Part shown: positions 816 through 6,150 of the stretch, piece by piece
Position numbering within the stretch: the stretch's first letter is position 1
Layout of the letters: every line of letters starts with the position of its first letter
Virus record (IMG/VR): IMGVR_UViG_2778261637_000011
From: a virus
Taxonomy: Duplodnaviria > Heunggongvirae > Uroviricota > Caudoviricetes
Length of the DNA: 6,150 nt
Reading direction: 5' to 3' (one strand)
Notes under the pieces: generated by a model
What the model was told of the DNA's origin: nothing
The model's input: the letters and a program-made list of their open reading frames with translations, nothing else
Database searches by the model: none
Made by a program: the position numbers and the translations under genes

Positions 816-3143
816 ATGGCAGCAGTAAAAATCTCAGGTGTGCTGAAAGATTGTGCGGGAAAACCAATACAGAACTGCACTATTCAACTGAAGGCAAAGC
901 GTAACAGCACCACGGTACTGGTGAACACGGTGGCCTCTGAAAATCCGGATGAAGCCGGGCGTTACAGCATGGATGTTGAGCATGGCCAGTACAGCGTCAT
1001 CCTGCTGGTTGAAGGTTTTCCGCCTTCACATGCCGGGACCATTACCGTCTATGAAGGCTCCAGACCAGGTACGCTGAATGATTTTCTCGGTGCCATGACG
1101 GAAGATGATGTCATGCCGGAGGCATTGCGTCGTTTTGAGGCAATGGTGGAAGAAGTGGCACGCAACGCCGAAGCCGCCTCTCAGAGCGCAGCGGCGGCAA
1201 AGAAATCCGAAACTGCAGCGGCATCATCGAAGAACGCGGCGAAAACCTCAGAAACGAATGCAGCTAATAGTGCACAGGCGGCAGCGACCTCAAAGACTGC
1301 ATCGGCAAACTCCGCGACAGCAGCCAAAAAATCAGAAACCAACGCGAAAAATAGCGAGACAGCCGCAAAGACGAGCGAAACCAACGCAAAGTCCAGCCAG
1401 ACGGCAGCGAAAACCAGCGAAACGAATGCCAAAGCCAGTGAAACTGCGGCAAAAAACAGCCAGGTTGCAGCAGCCCAAAGCGAGAGCGCGGCAGCCGGTT
1501 CTGCGACTTCAGCAGCTGGATCAGCAACTGCTGCGGCTAACAGCCAGAAAGCTGCGAAGACGAGTGAAACTAACGCAAAGTCCAGCCAGACGGCAGCGAA
1601 GACCAGCGAAACGAATGCCAAAGCCAGTGAAACTGCGGCGAAAAGCAGTCAGGATGCAGCGGCCCAAAGCGAGAGTGCCGCAGCCAGTTCTGCAAGCGCG
1701 GCGGCTGCTTCTGCCACTGCATCAGCTAACAGTCAAAAAGCAGCAAAAACCAGTGAAACCAACGCAAAGGTGAGCGAAACAGCGGCTGCGAACTCAGCGA
1801 AAGCATCGGCAGCAAGCCAGGCTGCGGAGCCGTATAAATATGTCTTACAGCCGCTGCCTGATGTGTGGATACCATTTAACGATTCGCTGGATATGATTAC
1901 GGGCTTTTCGCCATCATATAAAAAAATTGTTATTGGTGACGATGAAATAACGATGCCTGGCGACAAGATTGTTAAGTTTAAACGTGCATCGAAAGCAACC
2001 TATATTAACAAATCTGGTGTGCTGACAGAGGCTGCCATTGACGAGCCACGATTTGAACGTGATGGCCTGCTTATTGAGGGGCAAAGAACAAACTACATGC
2101 TCAATTCGGAAAGCCCTGCCAGTTGGGGGCGATCGTCAAATATGGATGTGCCCGAAACAGGGACGGATAATTTTGGTTTTACCTATGGAAAGTTTGTCTG
2201 CAACGATTCTCTGATTGGGCAAACCTCAGCCATTAATATGGCATCAATTGCTGCAACAAAGTCAGTTGATGTCTCAGGCGATAATAAACACGTGACAACC
2301 TCATGTCGTTTTAAAACAGAACTGCAGGTAAGGTTGCGTATCCGGTTTGATAAATATGACGGTAGCGCAACAACTTTTCTTGGTGATGCGTATATTGATA
2401 CACAAACGCTTGAAATTAATATGACAGGCGGTGCTGCCTCAAGGATTACAGCGAGAGTCAGAAAGGACGAAGCTACCGGATGGATTTTTGCAGAGGCAAC
2501 AATTCAGGCAATTGATGGGGAGTTAAAAATAGGCTCTCAGATACAGTATTCTCCTAAGCAGAGCGGGGCAACCGTATCTGGTGACTATATTTATCTGGCC
2601 ACCCCACAAGTAGAAGATGGGCCTTGTGTATCATCTTTTATTATATCAGGAGCGACGGCGGCGACCCGCGCAAGCGATATAGTTACAGTTCCAATTAAGA
2701 ATAATCTTTATAATCTTCCTTTTACGGTTCTTTGTGAGGTACATAAGAACTGGTATAAAACGCCAAATGCAGCGCCACGTGTTTTTGATACCGGCGGTCA
2801 TCAAACCGGAGCGGCTATTATTCTTGGCTTCGGTCGTTCAACAGATTACGACGGATTTCCTTATTGCGATATTGGAGGAGCTAACAGACGGGTAAACGAA
2901 AACGCATCGCTTGAAAAAATGGTTATGGGGATGCGTGTAAAGTCAGAGCAGTCTACGTGCTCAGTAAGTAACGGGCATATATCCAGCGAAACAAAAACCA
3001 CATGGTCCTGTATTCAGAACACCGCAATTATCCGTATTGGAGGCCAGACTACAGCCGGGTTACGTCATTTATTTGGTCATGTCAGGAATTTCAGAATATG
3101 GCACAAGGCATTGACTGATGCTCAGGTGGGGGAGTCAATCTAA
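816..3143 (+). CDS. stf: Side tail fiber protein, mosaic: lambda Stf-like N-terminus, repetitive shaft, divergent C-terminal putative receptor-binding domain
   Basis: RBS ggag (807-810) lies 5 nt before ATG 816; the ORF track begins at an in-frame GTG at 810. The N-terminal ~110 aa (MAAVKISGVLKD...GQYSVIL...GFPPSHAGTITVYE...GTLNDFL...AMVEEVARNA) closely resemble lambda Stf from memory. Residues ~120-340 are AAKTSETNAK-type tail fiber repeats. The C-terminal ~430 aa are lower in GC and end in ...FGHVRNFRIWHKALTDAQVGESI, which resembles the terminal motif of LamG/ConA-like jelly-roll domains. Confidence 0.88.
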   Translation: MAAVKISGVLKDCAGKPIQNCTIQLKAKRNSTTVLVNTVASENPDEAGRYSMDVEHGQYSVILLVEGFPPSHAGTITVYEGSRPGTLNDFLGAMTEDDVMPEALRRFEAMVEEVARNAEAASQSAAAAKKSETAAASSKNAAKTSETNAANSAQAAATSKTASANSATAAKKSETNAKNSETAAKTSETNAKSSQTAAKTSETNAKASETAAKNSQVAAAQSESAAAGSATSAAGSATAAANSQKAAKTSETNAKSSQTAAKTSETNAKASETAAKSSQDAAAQSESAAASSASAAAASATASANSQKAAKTSETNAKVSETAAANSAKASAASQAAEPYKYVLQPLPDVWIPFNDSLDMITGFSPSYKKIVIGDDEITMPGDKIVKFKRASKATYINKSGVLTEAAIDEPRFERDGLLIEGQRTNYMLNSESPASWGRSSNMDVPETGTDNFGFTYGKFVCNDSLIGQTSAINMASIAATKSVDVSGDNKHVTTSCRFKTELQVRLRIRFDKYDGSATTFLGDAYIDTQTLEINMTGGAASRITARVRKDEATGWIFAEATIQAIDGELKIGSQIQYSPKQSGATVSGDYIYLATPQVEDGPCVSSFIISGATAATRASDIVTVPIKNNLYNLPFTVLCEVHKNWYKTPNAAPRVFDTGGHQTGAAIILGFGRSTDYDGFPYCDIGGANRRVNENASLEKMVMGMRVKSEQSTCSVSNGHISSETKTTWSCIQNTAIIRIGGQTTAGLRHLFGHVRNFRIWHKALTDAQVGESI
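1190..1800 (+). repeat. In-frame repetitive region inside stf, including a 189-bp tandem duplication (copy 1 1362-1550, copy 2 1551-1739, partial third copy from 1740)
   Basis: Seen directly: the string gtccagccagacggcagcga recurs at 1391 and 1580, a 189-bp period, with near-identical flanks. A nested periodicity of about 42 bp encodes TAAKTSETNAKxSx units. Confidence 0.8.
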
Positions 3144-3424
3144 TGAAAGATTTAACACTCAAATTTGCCGACAGGGCCGACTTTTCGGCCTTTATGGAGA
3201 GTATTGGCTATTATGATGACGAGTCGATGCAGGATGATATTCTTATTGACGTGATAGGTAACGTGTACAAAGAAACCGGAGAACTGACTGAAGATGGCGA
3301 ACCGGTATGTGTTAAGGAAGACGGATATTTTGTAAACGTGCGCATCATTAATGATTCGCAAATATCGTCATTATTCGATGAATACGTGGTTGCTGTTGAG
3401 CATCAACTTCGTGGCTGGATGTGA
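3143..3424 (+). CDS. Hypothetical small acidic protein (93 aa) translationally coupled to stf; possible fiber assembly factor or adaptor
   Basis: ATG at 3143-3145 overlaps the stf stop TAA (3141-3143) by 1 nt (TAATG). A G-rich Shine-Dalgarno-like stretch ggggag (3129-3134) lies upstream. The protein is D/E-rich with no obvious transmembrane segment. I do not recognise the family. Confidence 0.6.
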   Translation: MKDLTLKFADRADFSAFMESIGYYDDESMQDDILIDVIGNVYKETGELTEDGEPVCVKEDGYFVNVRIINDSQISSLFDEYVVAVEHQLRGWM

Positions 3425-3433
3425 GGAAGAAAA

Positions 3434-4474
3434 ATGGCTACATCGACAGTAATTCCTGATGACATCAAAACGCTAAAATCCGACGTTAGCAAATTAAAAA
3501 ACGATCAAGGAAGCTACGCAACAAAATTATATGTAGACAGCAAAGATGAAATCGTTGGTGACTGGTCTGCTTCATGGTATCAGCAGGTATTGCCAACTAG
3601 CGGAGCTATATTTGGGAGAAAACTCCGCTCAACTCACAGGACGGCAGGTGTTGAGGATGCGTATTGCGAACTATACCTCAAAAAATGGATAGACAGTCCA
3701 GGTAACGCAATGGCGCGCCTTAACCTGAACGATAACGGGACAAACATTTGCTGGGACTTTACCAACCTTTATGGCGGTACGATGATTTTTCCCGGTGACA
3801 GCGGATACCTCAAAATGGGTAACTGCCTTATGTCATACAGCAAGCGTGGAAGTAACGCGCTTATTAAATTTGATTACACCGACACATTACAGATCAAATA
3901 TGCCAATCATGGGTCAACCATGACATTAAACACACAGGGAACCGCTTATGCTGGTGTTACTGCTCAATTGTGGGGCAACTCCAGCCGTCCTGTTGTTTAT
4001 GAAGTCGGTGTTGATGGTGGCGCTTATATGTTCTATGCGCAGAAAAATACCGATAACACCTATATGTTAAGCGTTAATGGTGCATGTCATGCCACCGCAT
4101 TTAACCAGCATTCCGACCGGGATCTGAAAGACAACATTCAGGTGATCGATAATGCAACCGACCGCATCCGTAAAATGAACGGCTATACATACACGCTTAA
4201 AGAAAACGGTATGCCCTATGCTGGTGTCATTGCACAGGAAGCTCTGGAAGCAATCCCAGAAGCTGTAGGTTCCGCAATGAAATATCAGGACGGTGCAAGC
4301 GGATCGGAAGGTGAAGAAGGTGAACGTTATTACACAGTAGATTATTCTGGTGTTACTGGCTTGCTTGTTCAGGTAGCCAGAGAGTCAGACGACAGAATAA
4401 CAGCACTGGAAGAAGAAAATGCAGAATTAAAACAAAGATTATCTGCAATTGAGGCGACGCTTGCGTCTAAATAA
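3434..4474 (+). CDS. Tail fiber / tailspike-like protein with C-terminal peptidase S74 intramolecular chaperone domain
   Basis: RBS gagga (3423-3427) overlaps the upstream stop, 6 nt before ATG 3434. The C-terminal ~120 aa carry the hallmark S74 motifs: S227-DRDLKDNI, GVIAQEALEAIPEAV, YYTVDYSGVTGLLVQVARE and a terminal coiled-coil ITALEEENAELKQRLSAIE, as in endosialidase and T5 L-shaped fiber chaperone domains. Confidence 0.85.
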   Translation: MATSTVIPDDIKTLKSDVSKLKNDQGSYATKLYVDSKDEIVGDWSASWYQQVLPTSGAIFGRKLRSTHRTAGVEDAYCELYLKKWIDSPGNAMARLNLNDNGTNICWDFTNLYGGTMIFPGDSGYLKMGNCLMSYSKRGSNALIKFDYTDTLQIKYANHGSTMTLNTQGTAYAGVTAQLWGNSSRPVVYEVGVDGGAYMFYAQKNTDNTYMLSVNGACHATAFNQHSDRDLKDNIQVIDNATDRIRKMNGYTYTLKENGMPYAGVIAQEALEAIPEAVGSAMKYQDGASGSEGEEGERYYTVDYSGVTGLLVQVARESDDRITALEEENAELKQRLSAIEATLASK

Positions 4475-4480
4475 TATTAA

Positions 4481-4500
4481 GGGGCCGAGCGCCCCGTTTT
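4481..4500 (+). terminator. Rho-independent terminator candidate after the fiber module
   Basis: Seen directly: GC-only 5-bp stem ggggc (4481-4485) pairing with gcccc (4491-4495), loop cgagc, then tttt (4497-4500). It starts 7 nt after the stop codon at 4472-4474. Confidence 0.5.
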
Positions 4501-4516: not shown

Positions 4517-4810
4517 ATGGATATAACACCTTTCCTTCATGCACTTTGTGCTGTGGCTGCGCAGGTACTGGTTGGTCTTTTTACCGGAAACTGGGCTTAC
4601 GGGGCGATAGCCGGTTGTACGTTCTTCATTGCTCGTGAACATACCCAGGCAGAATATCGCTGGATTGAAATGTTCGGGCATGGCAAGCGTATGAATATGC
4701 CGTGGTGGGGTGGTTTTGATCCGCGCGTGTGGGATGTGGCAAGCCTGATGGATTTTTCTGTGCCGGTGGTGGCTTGTCTGCTGGTCTGGCTGTTGGTTAA
4801 TCGTGGGTGA
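4517..4810 (+). CDS. Hypothetical small membrane protein (about 98-102 aa), candidate prophage accessory gene
   Basis: ORF is open from 4502 (TTG) to TGA at 4808-4810. The most plausible start is ATG 4517, with agga (4508-4511) 5 nt upstream; ATG 4511 is an alternative. Two hydrophobic stretches (LHALCAVAAQVLVGLFTGNWAYGAIAGCTFFIA and VPVVACLLVWLLV) suggest two transmembrane helices. The overlapping antisense ORF (4499-4984) has a His/Arg/Pro-rich composition that does not look protein-like. Confidence 0.5.
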   Translation: MDITPFLHALCAVAAQVLVGLFTGNWAYGAIAGCTFFIAREHTQAEYRWIEMFGHGKRMNMPWWGGFDPRVWDVASLMDFSVPVVACLLVWLLVNRG

Positions 4811-5273
4811 AAAAGGGAGTTGTAAACGCAACACAGGAAGAGGTGCCGCTTCAGGTTGCTGGGAATAAGCGCCGGGGTCTGTTAAATCATGCCAATACGC
4901 TAATCGAGCCAGATATTGAGTAGCCTGCAGTCCGTCATGGCGTAATCGTTTTGTGATATGCTGCACGCCGTATGCAAGGAGCATGATTGCGCTCGGCTGG
5001 CGAGCGCTCGATAGTGCTACTATTGAATGATTGCTAGTCTAGGCGGATTGTACTTAAGTAATATGACGGTTCAAGGCGTTTAATCTGAAACCAGCCACAT
5101 ATTAGCCTTTTCAAACATTTCCTGAACACTCAGGCTTACCTGCTCTTTCTCGTGCTTGCTGGCATTTGTGTTGAGCGCCGGTGAATACTCTTACTCAACA
5201 CTCCCAGAATTATATCTGTTGCATCAGGCAGACCATCAAAATTCTTTTGTCATAAACGAGTTCCACGAATAAT

Positions 5274-5355: not shown

Positions 5356-6150
5356 TTATAGTAAAGATGATATGCCAGCAAGAAATGGAGTAAATACTGT
5401 AATGTGTGCAGATACATTATTAATAAAGTCCTTATATGCTTCTTTAAAACAGCCGCTTTGGTGACTGGCTGCCAGTGCCTGTACATTATCTATAAGGTGT
5501 GATTCTGTCGCGCCATCAAAGTTTTTCGATTTTATTGCCTCAATCATTTCATTAAATATTGTGGGCTCATTATAATTTGTCGTAGTAGTTGCCGTAGCAC
5601 CTGAAGAATGTATATTGATACTAGAACCGGAAATTCCACTGACATGAATATTAGCTTCTTGTTTCATAAGAGGTAAACCATTCTCCATCTTGTATAGGTC
5701 ACTATCTTGTAGCATCTGCAATGTGATACGTACTGCTGCTAATAGTTGTTCTTGCTTTTTGAATAAGGAACACATCTGTTCTACAGACCAAAGCTGAACT
5801 GCATTTTCTTCGCATGTTTTTTTAGCTATATTTGGCACTTCCGAATCATAATTACCATAAACCCAAGTGTCCTTGAATCTTTCGATAATAGCTGTCAACG
5901 TTGGAAATTTACTGAAATCACTATTAATGGATAGTAACTCATCAGACATATAAAGTGCCATATCTCTGCCTTCCGCATATACTGCTTCCACTTTATTCCG
6001 TGTTGCAAATGGTATTCTTGAAATAAAACGAAAATCCTCTTCATTTTTTAAATGGACCCAGTCTTTATCAAAACGGCTAAATTCGTACCCTATCGATAAC
6101 AGTCTACTTATATATTGGGCTACTGATTCCAAATCTTTTCTTATGTCCAA
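5356..6150 (-). CDS. Hypothetical protein, AT-rich cargo gene, 5'-truncated by the window edge (C-terminal 264 aa visible)
   Basis: A 795-nt open frame on the minus strand with stop TAA at 5356-5358 (tta on +). The M at 6150 in the ORF track is a TTG at the window edge, so the true start is beyond 6150. Sampled 60-nt lines give about 32-42% G+C versus about 63% in lom. I recognise no confident family from the visible residues. Confidence 0.6.
   Translation of the reverse strand: MDIRKDLESVAQYISRLLSIGYEFSRFDKDWVHLKNEEDFRFISRIPFATRNKVEAVYAEGRDMALYMSDELLSINSDFSKFPTLTAIIERFKDTWVYGNYDSEVPNIAKKTCEENAVQLWSVEQMCSLFKKQEQLLAAVRITLQMLQDSDLYKMENGLPLMKQEANIHVSGISGSSINIHSSGATATTTTNYNEPTIFNEMIEAIKSKNFDGATESHLIDNVQALAASHQSGCFKEAYKDFINNVSAHITVFTPFLAGISSLL

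Follow-up and report, generated by a model that had tools for sequence, protein, structure and literature searches.

A probable two-module side tail-fibre locus

The 6,150-nucleotide stretch of viral DNA analysed here (the window) carries a side (lateral) tail-fibre locus of modular build from a lambdoid E. coli prophage, in which three same-strand genes are arranged in series: stf (816–3143), orf93 (3143–3424) and a gene with an S74 domain, gene 3 (3434–4474). Judged from sequence comparisons, the locus probably encodes a side fibre with two receptor-binding modules, in which the gene-3 protein is plugged into the Stf head/orf93. Of the two adjacent fibre genes, only the first specifies a virion anchor (PF08400), and gene 3 encodes just 346 aa. 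The candidate attachment module is the ~20-aa gene-3 N-terminus, which follows an orf93 homologue and this head in four siphovirus groups, and putative receptor-binding variable regions are present on both proteins, as two hypervariable segments of the head and three gene-3 bodies. An earlier note on this DNA had proposed a two-component or branched receptor-binding apparatus; the comparative evidence speaks for two components with two modules, but not for an obligatory trio, because orf93 follows the Stf head even without gene 3, as in phage 21. The features of the locus are:

778–804, + strand: intrinsic terminator after lom; 8-bp GC-rich stem, 6-nt loop, T5
816–3143, + strand: stf-like side tail fibre gene; 775 aa from ATG 816, phrog_1419 over its full length
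1353–1769, + strand: shaft tandem repeat; 189 nt (63 aa), 2.2 copies, nested 42- and 21-nt periodicity
1851–2090, + strand: conserved head "neck"; residues 348–427, mean pairwise identity 0.78–0.95 across 11 head alleles
2091–2630, + strand: hypervariable beta-sandwich head domain; residues 428–607, identity 0.22–0.44 among head alleles
2751–3050, + strand: second hypervariable head segment; residues 648–747, identity 0.25–0.40, low AF2 confidence
3051–3140, + strand: conserved Stf C-terminal tail; ends …RHLFGHVRNFRIWHKALTDAQVGESI, identity 0.62–0.74
3143–3424, + strand: orf93; 93 aa, acidic (pI 4.05), alpha/beta, phrog_1361 (unknown function)
3434–3529, + strand: gene-3 N-terminal "plug"; starts MATSTVIPDDIKTLKSDVSKLK…, about 20–32 aa, invariant
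3530–4114, + strand: gene-3 variable body; residues 33–227, phrog_6578, 5668 and 14572, three body alleles
4115–4474, + strand: S74 intramolecular chaperone domain; residues 228–346 and stop codon
4481–4503, + strand: weak terminator-like hairpin; 5-bp GC stem, then GTTTTATT
4517–4810, + strand: gene for a 97-aa membrane protein with two TM segments; phrog_1443

Since GGAG is located 6 nt before ATG 816, this codon is the likelier start of stf than GTG 810. The stf stop codon (TAA 3141–3143) and the orf93 start codon (ATG 3143–3145) have one base in common within TAATG, with GGGGGAG positioned 8 nt upstream of the latter, and orf93 is translationally coupled to stf. This overlap is kept in all six of six loci from lambdoid, T5-like, Nonagvirus, Drexlerviridae and rV5-like phages. 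The orf93 stop codon (TGA 3422–3424) is followed by the 9-nt spacer ggaagaaaa and the ATG of gene 3 at 3434, which ends with TAA 4472–4474. The chaining of the three genes by an overlapping stop/start and a 9-nt gap, as described in the earlier note, is exact to the nucleotide.

The slot of stf lies downstream of J and lom in the lambdoid tail module, and a 99.7%-identical genome, as well as Tritos, displays the order tape measure, M/L/K/I-like genes, J, lom and stf. The J-lom-stf position and the homologous N-terminal anchor are shared with stf-tfa of lambda, whereas here Tfa and the lambda-type C-terminal tip are missing and a second fibre gene is present. Indeed, no Tfa-type assembly protein (Tfa/Caudo_TAP) was found among the window ORFs with Pfam or PHROGs, nor downstream with NCBIfam, in agreement with the proposal that the cassette stands in place of lambda stf-tfa. 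Unlike in lambda, maturation of Stf must depend on orf93 and/or other factors.

Architecture of the Stf fibre protein

Stf begins with a lambda-type anchor at its N-terminus, continues in a repeat shaft rich in Ala, Ser and Thr and ends in a head of ~430 aa. The anchor matches PF08400 over residues 5–134 (E 1e-65, 220 bits against a cutoff of 26.6), and residues 5–97 match a 94-residue chain of PDB 9e7m annotated as 'Tail fiber protein' (E 1e-47), which we take to be lambda Stf. PF08400 is the sole Pfam match to Stf, in which no S74 domain (PF13884) was detected, as the earlier note had maintained. Within the shaft repeat, the closest genomes differ by an in-frame 48-nt indel.

The neck constitutes the left edge of the cassette common to the phage families, and homology to the fibres of KarlJaspers, IrisVonRoten and CarlMeissner spans from the neck to the Stf C-terminus, starting at residue 347 for CarlMeissner. 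The adjoining residues 428–607 represent a putative glycan-binding receptor-binding domain 1. Residues 421–621 match NF048003 GTA_spike_fiber (50.6 bits against a cutoff of 36), and the beta-sandwich is the only confidently modelled part of the head, for which the mean pLDDT is 50 (AF2). In fold comparisons this sandwich comes closest to baseplate and tail-fibre entries of phage Pa193/E217 and to carbohydrate-binding modules of families CBM4/27/6/35, matches that are weak because most of the head is modelled at low confidence. Homologous heads have been termed galectin- or lectin-like (PMC11990801, PMC12143355). The RHLFGHVRNFRIWHKALTDAQVGESI motif that ends the C-terminal tail also closes the fibres of phage 21, IrisVonRoten, KarlJaspers and CarlMeissner. 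We note that RefSeq names Stf after NF048003 ('head spike fibre').

Gene 3 encodes a probable S74-domain fibre

No anchor domain was found in gene 3 with Pfam. Its protein matches PF13884 Peptidase_S74 over residues 227–278 (E 2.6e-14, 53.7 bits against a cutoff of 22), which bears out the claim that the third gene carries its own cis chaperone; the S74 domain can be aligned to PDB 6f45, and a coiled-coil end follows the match. A Ser…Lys motif, HS227DRDLK232, can be read off the sequence at the start of the domain, and S227 and K232 presumably form the catalytic dyad, as in work on endosialidase and T5. Self-cleavage is predicted at S227 within HSDRDLK.

The gene-3 body, a putative receptor-binding domain 2, shares 44–61% identity with the C-terminal tips of fibres made of a single chain, among them mEp460 Stf and T5-like fibres, and PHROG 6578 includes an Stf-type shaft and a gene-3-like tip in one protein. 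Short gene-3 alleles of 234 aa and 221 aa, in which the S74 domain begins at residue 106–116, would yield a mature stub of ~105–115 residues with no obvious binding domain, which counts against the two-module reading. By contrast with the body, the N-terminus is fixed: a near-identical 20-mer is present in 71 loci carrying three unrelated bodies. The N-terminal motif was found in 59 phage records, and in each of the 19 with a listed orf93 position it lies downstream of the orf93 homologue at a distance of about 20 nt or less.

Distribution and reassortment of the cassette

The cassette is a common, already sequenced type of side-tail-fibre gene cassette. It is 97–99% identical in the isolated phages Tritos, 2G7b, HannyBb and PhiR63_1, and orf93 together with gene 3 occurs in about a tenth (520/5426) of complete E. 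coli genomes. The earlier description of the architecture as 'non-canonical' does not hold in view of this frequency, the assignment of stf, orf93 and gene 3 each to a separate PHROG family, the presence of the cassette in sequenced plaque-forming phages and the existing model of the IrisVonRoten locus. The refuting condition set in the earlier note, 93-aa and 346-aa genes away from any fibre gene, did not materialise; rather, orf93 and the gene-3 motif adjoined one wherever they were found. Homologous trios with unrelated N-terminal anchors and tails are present in Nonagvirus ESCO3 and JenP1, in KarlJaspers (Drexlerviridae) and in the T5-like IrisVonRoten, and therefore the docking site must travel with the cassette.

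For comparison of alleles, 84 loci were fetched with an orf93 alignment, of which 80 were from IMG/VR (orf93 at least 94% identical) and four from genomes, with the 80 IMG/VR loci being close relatives, mostly E. coli prophages, and not independent samples. Across these 84 loci, every uncut locus of the 93-aa form has, 9 nt downstream, a gene starting MATSTVIP[DGE]DI[KT]TLK. In loci of this form, orf93 hardly changes, nor do the ~20 residues with which the gene-3 protein begins, whereas the Stf head and gene-3 body vary, with 12 head alleles and three gene-3 body alleles in mixed combinations. The conserved ~400-bp block comprising the Stf tail, orf93 and the gene-3 N-terminus may provide the stretch of homology that lets heads and distal knobs reassort. 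Because adjacent genes are linked, a recombination hotspot, as opposed to protein contact, could account for part of the conservation shared by orf93 and the gene-3 N-terminus.

Comparison with known fibre systems

The same three-gene layout, with a stop/start overlap followed by a 9-nt spacer, is observed for Gp22/Gp23/Gp24 of IrisVonRoten (Bas32). The Gp22 and Stf heads share 63% identity, Gp23 and orf93 share 39%, and Gp24 begins with MVTKTVIPTDITKLK and finishes in an S74 domain, like gene 3. The anchors differ, being T5-type in IrisVonRoten and PF08400 here, as do the distal proteins, since the 574-aa, 'T-shaped' Gp24 has two binding domains whereas the 346-aa gene-3 protein has a single body. 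Gp24 has been modelled as attached to the proximal fibre Gp22, with a galectin-like head domain, and the role of the 92-aa Gp23 is not discussed in that paper (PMC11990801).

Two adjacent fibre genes likewise encode the branched L-shaped LtfA/LtfB fibres of DT57C and DT571/2, in which the first protein anchors and the second is inferred to attach through the first; for DT57C, attachment of LtfB through LtfA has genetic support (PMC4728585). LtfA and LtfB each possess an O-antigen receptor-binding domain, no small intervening gene has been described between them, and the N-terminus of LtfB resembles phiEco32 gp15 (PMC4728585, PMC10713586). An S74 domain ends both of these proteins, whereas here it ends gene 3 only. 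By analogy, the cassette can be taken to work like the DT57C LtfA/LtfB type; it is not a member of that subtype, because Stf is devoid of an S74 domain.

Phage 21, Perceval and PhiR40_1 encode stf, orf92 and a membrane protein, without gene 3. Their Stf is 62% identical overall and about 90% identical, by eye, over residues 350–660, while orf92 is 42–54% identical to orf93 and the membrane protein 88–95% identical; the last ~115 Stf residues and the orf92 allele differ from those found here. In the single-chain fibres of mEp460 (Stf, 1202 aa) and T5 (L-shaped fibre), the distal tip and S74 domain are homologous to gene-3 residues 84–337, with 44% identity for the mEp460 tip, which occupies the same genomic slot. 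In these fibres, however, the tip is fused to the shaft, and there is no lectin-like head, orf93 or separate plug.

A model for fibre assembly

We suggest that Stf trimers would be fixed to the tail tip through the N-terminal anchor, with the lectin-like head acting as the first receptor-binding domain, probably for a surface glycan. The gene-3 protein would trimerise with the aid of its own S74 domain, which would then be cut off at S227, and the resulting knob of ~227 residues may plug in through its N-terminal peptide, the socket being made up of orf93 and of either the conserved framework of the Stf head or the C-terminal tail of that head. Each fibre of the virion would then bear two independently exchangeable receptor-binding modules.

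Alternative roles for gene 3 and orf93

It is improbable that gene 3 is instead a trans-acting chaperone for Stf rather than a virion fibre, even though homologues in KarlJaspers, KurtStettler and ESCO3 are labelled 'putative lateral tail fiber chaperone' or 'endosialidase chaperone' and the 221–234-aa alleles leave little mature protein ahead of S74. S74 domains are known to serve, in cis, the polypeptide of which they are part before being cut off, and the identity of gene-3 residues 84–337 to the distal tips of long single-chain fibres (44–61%), the variation and reassortment of the body in the manner of a receptor-binding domain and the PHROG class of gene 3 (tail fibre) all argue for a fibre. 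Gene 3 is served by a ribosome-binding site of its own, and its product might in principle self-assemble; nevertheless, an independent short fibre attached elsewhere on the tail (e.g. to the tip complex) and unrelated to Stf/orf93 is very improbable, given that lambdoid, Nonagvirus, Drexlerviridae and T5-like phages share one N-terminal motif despite their differing fibre anchors and, we presume, differing tail tips, that in every case this motif directly follows an orf93 homologue and this Stf head, and that gene 3 is without a Pfam anchor domain. The notion of a defective prophage in which the cassette is a mere remnant, decaying and without function, could draw on the RefSeq entry for stf in the closest genome, a pseudogene fragment and a separate CDS, and on a nearby DinI pseudogene. 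It appears exceedingly improbable, since the stf ORF, of 775 aa in the window and 791 aa in that genome, is intact in both, the two differing only by one in-frame 16-aa indel of the shaft repeat and five substitutions, the junctions and ribosome-binding sites are all intact, as are the upstream tail genes, and isolated phages carry the cassette at 97–99% identity.

The part of the cassette that has no explanation so far is orf93 alone. Its predicted structure has a pLDDT of 84, and neither sequence nor fold searches linked it to a known family or fold; comparison with lambda Tfa, T4 gp38/gp57A and Mu U revealed similarity in neither sequence nor fold. Homologues of orf93 always adjoin this Stf head, with gene 3 present or not, and gene 3 is missing beside them in phage 21, Perceval, PhiR40_1 and rV5-like phages; orf93 is therefore not simply an adaptor for gene 3. 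As it persists where gene 3 is absent, orf93 may be needed by the head itself, as a head-associated assembly or junction factor. One tentative possibility is that orf93 is a previously unrecognised structural joint, which together with the conserved Stf tail would form a universal socket for the ~20-residue gene-3 plug. Such a joint would represent a plug-and-play connector common to at least four siphovirus groups, would be kept as a capping piece where a fibre lacks its distal partner and could be exploited for mounting arbitrary receptor-binding domains on lambda-type particles. Also possible, although doubtful, is that orf93 is a purely non-structural, Tfa-like folding chaperone for the Stf head that is absent from virions, with gene 3 docking directly on Stf. 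This would fit its constant companionship with the head, the lack of both a Tfa and a cis S74 domain by which Stf could be folded, the small size, high acidity and coupling to stf, as is often the case for fibre chaperones, and the low confidence of the AF2 monomer model in the head flanks, as expected for intertwined trimeric parts that need folding help. Tip-specific chaperones, however, usually co-vary with their tips, whereas orf93 is near-invariant (at least 94% identical) beside heads that are 40–100% identical, and it resembles no known fibre chaperone in sequence or fold.

Terminators and a fourth gene

The terminators said to bracket the three genes fare unequally. The upstream one, a hairpin (778–799) with a T5 run, is strong (−18.2 kcal/mol, z −3.8), yet it belongs to the lom moron, which is flanked by terminators at 103–122 and 778–799, and ends lom just upstream of stf; by analogy with lambda late transcription, we do not regard it as a boundary of a fibre operon. 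The downstream hairpin (4481–4495) was picked up by a terminator scan, but it is weak (−10.1 kcal/mol, z −0.79), with 42 of 200 shuffles folding equally well, the T tract is interrupted, and a gene co-oriented with the fibre genes starts 22 nt beyond it, at 4517. The 97-aa membrane protein encoded there is 95% identical to its phage 21 counterpart, the gene for which directly follows orf92 in phage 21-type loci. Thus, while the chaining of the three genes stands, their extent as a unit probably does not, the membrane-protein gene (4517–4810) being the likely fourth.

Gene content of the fibre locus

The window comes from a lambdoid E. coli prophage, of which it forms the right end. In 51 complete E. 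coli genomes the match spans 80% of the window or more, and the top matches among those listed cover it entirely at 99.6–99.7% identity. In the best-match genome, the genes located 5' of those in the window encode the tape measure, minor tail proteins and J. The window itself contains the following genes:

152–751, lom
816–3143, stf-like gene (side tail fibre; product Stf)
3143–3424, orf93, encoding a 93-aa protein
3434–4474, gene 3, encoding a 346-aa fibre protein
4517–4810, + strand, gene for a 97-aa membrane protein (phrog_1443)
about 5080–5266, - strand, DinI-like gene, frameshifted
5356–6150, - strand, 264-aa ORF with low GC and a TTG start

Checked against the sequence, all coordinates of the earlier note are correct. 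The ATG of stf at 816 is preceded by GGAG 6 nt upstream, the stf stop codon (TAA, 3141–3143) overlaps by one base with the orf93 start codon (ATG, 3143–3145; GGGGGAG upstream), and the 9-nt spacer ggaagaaaa separates the orf93 stop codon (TGA, 3422–3424) from the ATG of gene 3 at 3434. Each of the three genes has a full-length PHROG family (stf, 1419; orf93, 1361; gene 3, 4563). Stf lacks an S74 domain, as the note had proposed, its only Pfam match being PF08400, and gene 3 carries its own (PF13884, Peptidase_S74, residues 227–278). The proposal that these genes take the place of stf-tfa also holds, with Pfam, PHROG and NCBIfam identifying no Tfa-like product among the window ORFs.

Anchor, shaft and head of Stf

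Residues 5–97 of Stf match the 94-residue chain of PDB 9e7m, deposited as 'Tail fiber protein', which we take to be the N-terminal domain of lambda Stf. The shaft, rich in Ala, Ser and Thr, includes at 1353–1769 (and 1316–1642) a tandem repeat of 189 nt (63 aa), present in 2.2 copies with 84% match, within which periods of 42 and 21 nt are nested. Near the shaft-head boundary an in-frame indel of 48 nt (16 aa) separates the closest genomes from the window, which suggests that shaft length varies via repeat slippage or recombination. We note that the stf ORF of E. coli MS 69-1 (locus L001, 8816–11191), although intact at 791 aa, is split by RefSeq/PGAP into a truncated pseudogene (8816–9182) and a second CDS (9941–11191, 416 aa, 'phage head spike fiber domain-containing protein'); because the ORF is continuous, the split looks like an artefact across the repeat-rich shaft.

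The head matches the NF048003 'phage head spike fibre' domain at residues 421–621. An AF2 model of the head (mean pLDDT 50) is confident only at residues ~435–604, which form a beta-sandwich. The Foldseek matches of this model, led by baseplate and tail-fibre entries of the Pseudomonas phages Pa193 and E217 and followed by carbohydrate-binding modules, are weak (best E 2e-4) and thus serve as supporting evidence only. The homologous head of IrisVonRoten Gp22 has been termed galectin-like (PMC11990801), and domain D69 of EmilHeitz, also a homologous head, is described as lectin-like, stated there as confirmed by cryo-EM (PMC12143355).

Distribution of the cassette

The description of this architecture as non-canonical does not hold: orf93 and gene 3 are present at 80% coverage or more in 520 of 5426 complete E. 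coli genomes, the arrangement occurs in sequenced phages, and a homologous T5-like locus has already been modelled. At least partial matches to the pair extend to 1130 genomes, the partial ones among those listed comprising orf93 and the first ~15 codons of gene 3. The block of stf head, orf93, gene 3 and membrane-protein gene recurs with 97–98% DNA identity in the isolated phages Tritos, PhiR63_1, HannyBb and 2G7b. At least four standard alternatives, this cassette among them, occupy the lambdoid locus:

stf-tfa
single chain with cis S74 domain
lectin-head fibre + orf92 (the orf93 homologue of phage 21-type loci)
lectin-head fibre + orf93 + distal S74 fibre (window cassette)

Homologues of orf93 are found in 183 phage records from lambdoids, Drexlerviridae, Dhillonvirus, Queuovirinae, T5-like and rV5-like phages, and in all annotated rows among the matches listed the match lies under or adjoins a fibre gene. 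The proteins of the virulent Nonagvirus ESCO3 are 96% (head), 92% (orf93) and 93% (gene 3) identical to those of the window, and the trio sits behind a fibre N-terminus other than that of the window Stf, a layout shared by JenP1. In T5-like IrisVonRoten, gp22 (796 aa), gp23 (92 aa) and gp24 (574 aa, with S74 domain) are joined by the same overlap and the same 9-nt spacer as in the window. The trio of KarlJaspers (Drexlerviridae) comprises a 651-aa fibre, orf92 and a 221-aa S74 protein. In rV5-like CarlMeissner, a 1479-aa fibre ending in the same head is followed by a 110-aa orf93 homologue; no gene bearing the N-terminal motif of gene 3 was found downstream of it. Depending on the phage, this head is joined to PF08400, a T5-type N-terminus, a T1-type N-terminus or P2-type PF12571/PF03406.

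A constant junction between two variable modules

The loci compared for variation were 80 from IMG/VR, in each of which orf93 is at least 94% identical, and four from genomes, three with orf93 89–100% identical and one of the phage 21 type; the scan of genome contigs used one degenerate pattern and returned these four only. Among loci with the 93-aa form, Stf head identity ranges from 40% to 100%, with hypervariable stretches bordered by a conserved neck and tail.

Mean pairwise identity along the Stf head (residues, identity, class)
348–427, 0.78–0.95, conserved neck
428–607, 0.22–0.44, hypervariable
608–647, 0.53–0.62, intermediate
648–747, 0.25–0.40, hypervariable
748–777, 0.62–0.74, conserved tail

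In all uncut loci with the 93-aa form, gene 3 starts exactly 9 nt after orf93 and its first 20 residues are nearly invariant. The bodies that follow are of three types (346 aa; a second 346-aa type, 75% identity; a 234-aa type, 25% identity), which are unrelated or diverged. The Stf heads comprise 12 alleles that occur in mixed combinations with the three body types. Together, the head identity profile and the mixed combinations define a constant junction of about 400 bp (Stf tail, orf93 and gene-3 N-terminus) with, on either side, a variable module that exchanges independently of the other. Gene 3 is absent from loci whose orf93 homologue is the phage 21-type orf92 allele (42–54% identical to orf93).

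In one IMG/VR locus (L014, 3894–4998), orf93 is 100% identical and gene 3, truncated by the end of the contig, is of the 346-aa type, but Stf does not carry the usual …RHLFGHxRNFRIWHK… tail and ends …STYVSSVFAGRTDVRKFIGEY. If this ending is real, orf93 does not strictly require the conserved Stf tail as its neighbour.

The putative distal fibre protein

Residues 84–337 of gene 3 share 44–61% identity with the tips at the distal end of single-chain fibres, among them the 1202-aa Stf of mEp460, which occupies the same slot without tfa and without orf93. The motif HS227DRDLK marks the predicted self-cleavage site. The N-terminus of the window gene 3, here termed the plug (MATSTVIPDDIKTLK), is resembled by those of the third genes in IrisVonRoten (MVTKTVIPTDITKLK) and KarlJaspers (MATVTNIPADITALK). 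A 40-residue query with the plug motif identified 59 phage records; an orf93 position is listed as well for 19 of these, and in all 19 the motif follows the orf93 homologue by no more than about 20 nt. In the short gene-3 alleles of 234 aa (L018 5292–5996) and 221 aa (L008 4782–5447), the S74 domain begins at residues 116 and 106, respectively, which would leave a predicted mature stub of ~105–115 residues, mostly coiled coil; such a stub may bind a receptor or merely cap the fibre.

In the window, orf93 and gene 3 share a frame, separated by TGA and 9 nt, and the two genes are in one frame also in IrisVonRoten, JenP1 and ESCO3. Stop-codon readthrough joining the two was considered and rejected: the stop is TGA or TAA depending on the lineage and the genes are out of frame in KarlJaspers, so that the shared frame is probably a coincidence rather than programmed readthrough.

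Possible roles of orf93 and a proposed model for the fibre

The orf93 family is small, with 355 clusters among 5.8 billion proteins and no assigned function in the libraries searched. A profile search for fusions of orf93 to fibres, across 1.84 billion representatives, returned 87 matches, almost all stand-alone and 85–150 aa long; four long matches (TPR/CHAT, PKD and Mtd_N proteins) were spurious, their scores being sums over stretches of at most 12 bits each. No member fused to a fibre was found among the 355 clusters and 87 representatives. A role of orf93 or the membrane protein in anti-phage defence was rejected, neither having a PADLOC match. Inspection by eye of two alignments (A1 and A2) revealed no clean signature in orf93 or the Stf tail that marks the presence of gene 3, and the literature yielded no usable virion proteome in which an orf93 homologue is listed.

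Even in loci that lack gene 3, orf93 accompanies the head, indicating that the head is its primary partner, which favours a role as an assembly or capping factor. However, tip-specific chaperones usually co-vary with their tips, and no such co-variation links orf93 to the hypervariable head segments. Its conservation goes together with that of the plug, which speaks for a structural joint.

In the most likely mechanism, Stf would attach at the tail tip and display a hypervariable lectin-like head, and gene 3 would fold with the aid of its own S74 domain, which would then be cut away. The invariant N-terminus of the remaining short knob would serve as a plug that fits into orf93 and/or the conserved part of the head, giving a fibre with two exchangeable receptor-binding modules. 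The strongest argument for such docking is portability: the plug is present in four siphovirus groups with differing fibre anchors, always with this head and orf93, which implies that the docking site must belong to the cassette. The tail tips of these four groups also differ. The suggestion of a two-component or branched receptor-binding apparatus in the earlier note is broadly correct; the attachment of gene 3, S74 cleavage and the receptors are what we infer.

The mechanism proposed here agrees with the published proximal-plus-distal fibre model for IrisVonRoten (PMC11990801). The cassette would also work like the branched LtfA/LtfB fibre of DT57C, which is genetically supported (PMC4728585, PMC10713586), but it is not of that subtype, since the window Stf has no S74 domain.

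The range of E. coli surface glycans open to a temperate phage is determined by its side tail fibres, which are also the parts swapped in engineering lambda-derived delivery particles. The junction of about 400 bp and the two reassorting modules offer a practical cut-and-paste map; the cassette is not mentioned in the literature found on Stf chimeras in such particles and on lambdoid co-transfer. The feature is real, but abundant in E. coli and present in sequenced phages, and its interest is modest, centred on the conserved junction as an engineering handle and on the uncharacterised 93-aa family, which may act as chaperone or joint; the rest of the locus is ordinary.

Transcription unit and neighbouring genes

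The fibre genes had been described as bracketed by terminators, which stands only in part. The terminator at 778–804 (hairpin 778–799) is strong (-18.2 kcal/mol, z -3.8), but it belongs to lom and does not mark the left edge of the fibre genes, as the earlier note had it: with a second terminator at 103–122 (z -5.1) it encloses lom in a classic moron layout, and both lom-flanking sites are annotated likewise in mEp460. As in lambda, late transcription would pass through the lom-stf terminator. Downstream, the hairpin at 4481–4495 is weak (z -0.79), the membrane-protein gene starts 22 nt 3' of it, and in phage 21, Perceval and PhiR40_1 the same gene follows the orf93 homologue by 9–12 nt. The transcription unit therefore probably comprises four genes, including that of the membrane protein.

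In many lambdoid phages, whether or not gene 3 is present, this fourth gene sits directly 3' of the fibre genes, its product being 88–100% identical. The phage 21 annotators predicted two transmembrane domains for this 97-aa protein, which has no PADLOC or Pfam match and whose role could be in conversion, exclusion or the fibre. The 264-aa ORF has a GC content of about 0.35–0.37, compared with about 0.45–0.56 in the fibre genes, and is probably prophage cargo; it has no match in Pfam, PHROG or NCBIfam, and its very weak PADLOC match to PDC-M14B (E 0.0017) is below the useful threshold.

The DinI-like gene is frameshifted according to the annotation of the 99.7%-identical genome; intact DinI-like genes are located at that place in mEp460, and PhiR40_1 has a DNA damage-inducible protein gene at this position. 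We also note that the phage 21 and Perceval genomes carry the sitABCD iron/manganese transporter operon directly 3' of the fibre and membrane-protein genes (L003 5752–8693 and L005 6506–9447). In E. coli MS 69-1, sitABCD (L001 14671–18120) is located about 470 nt past the window end and may likewise be prophage-borne cargo.
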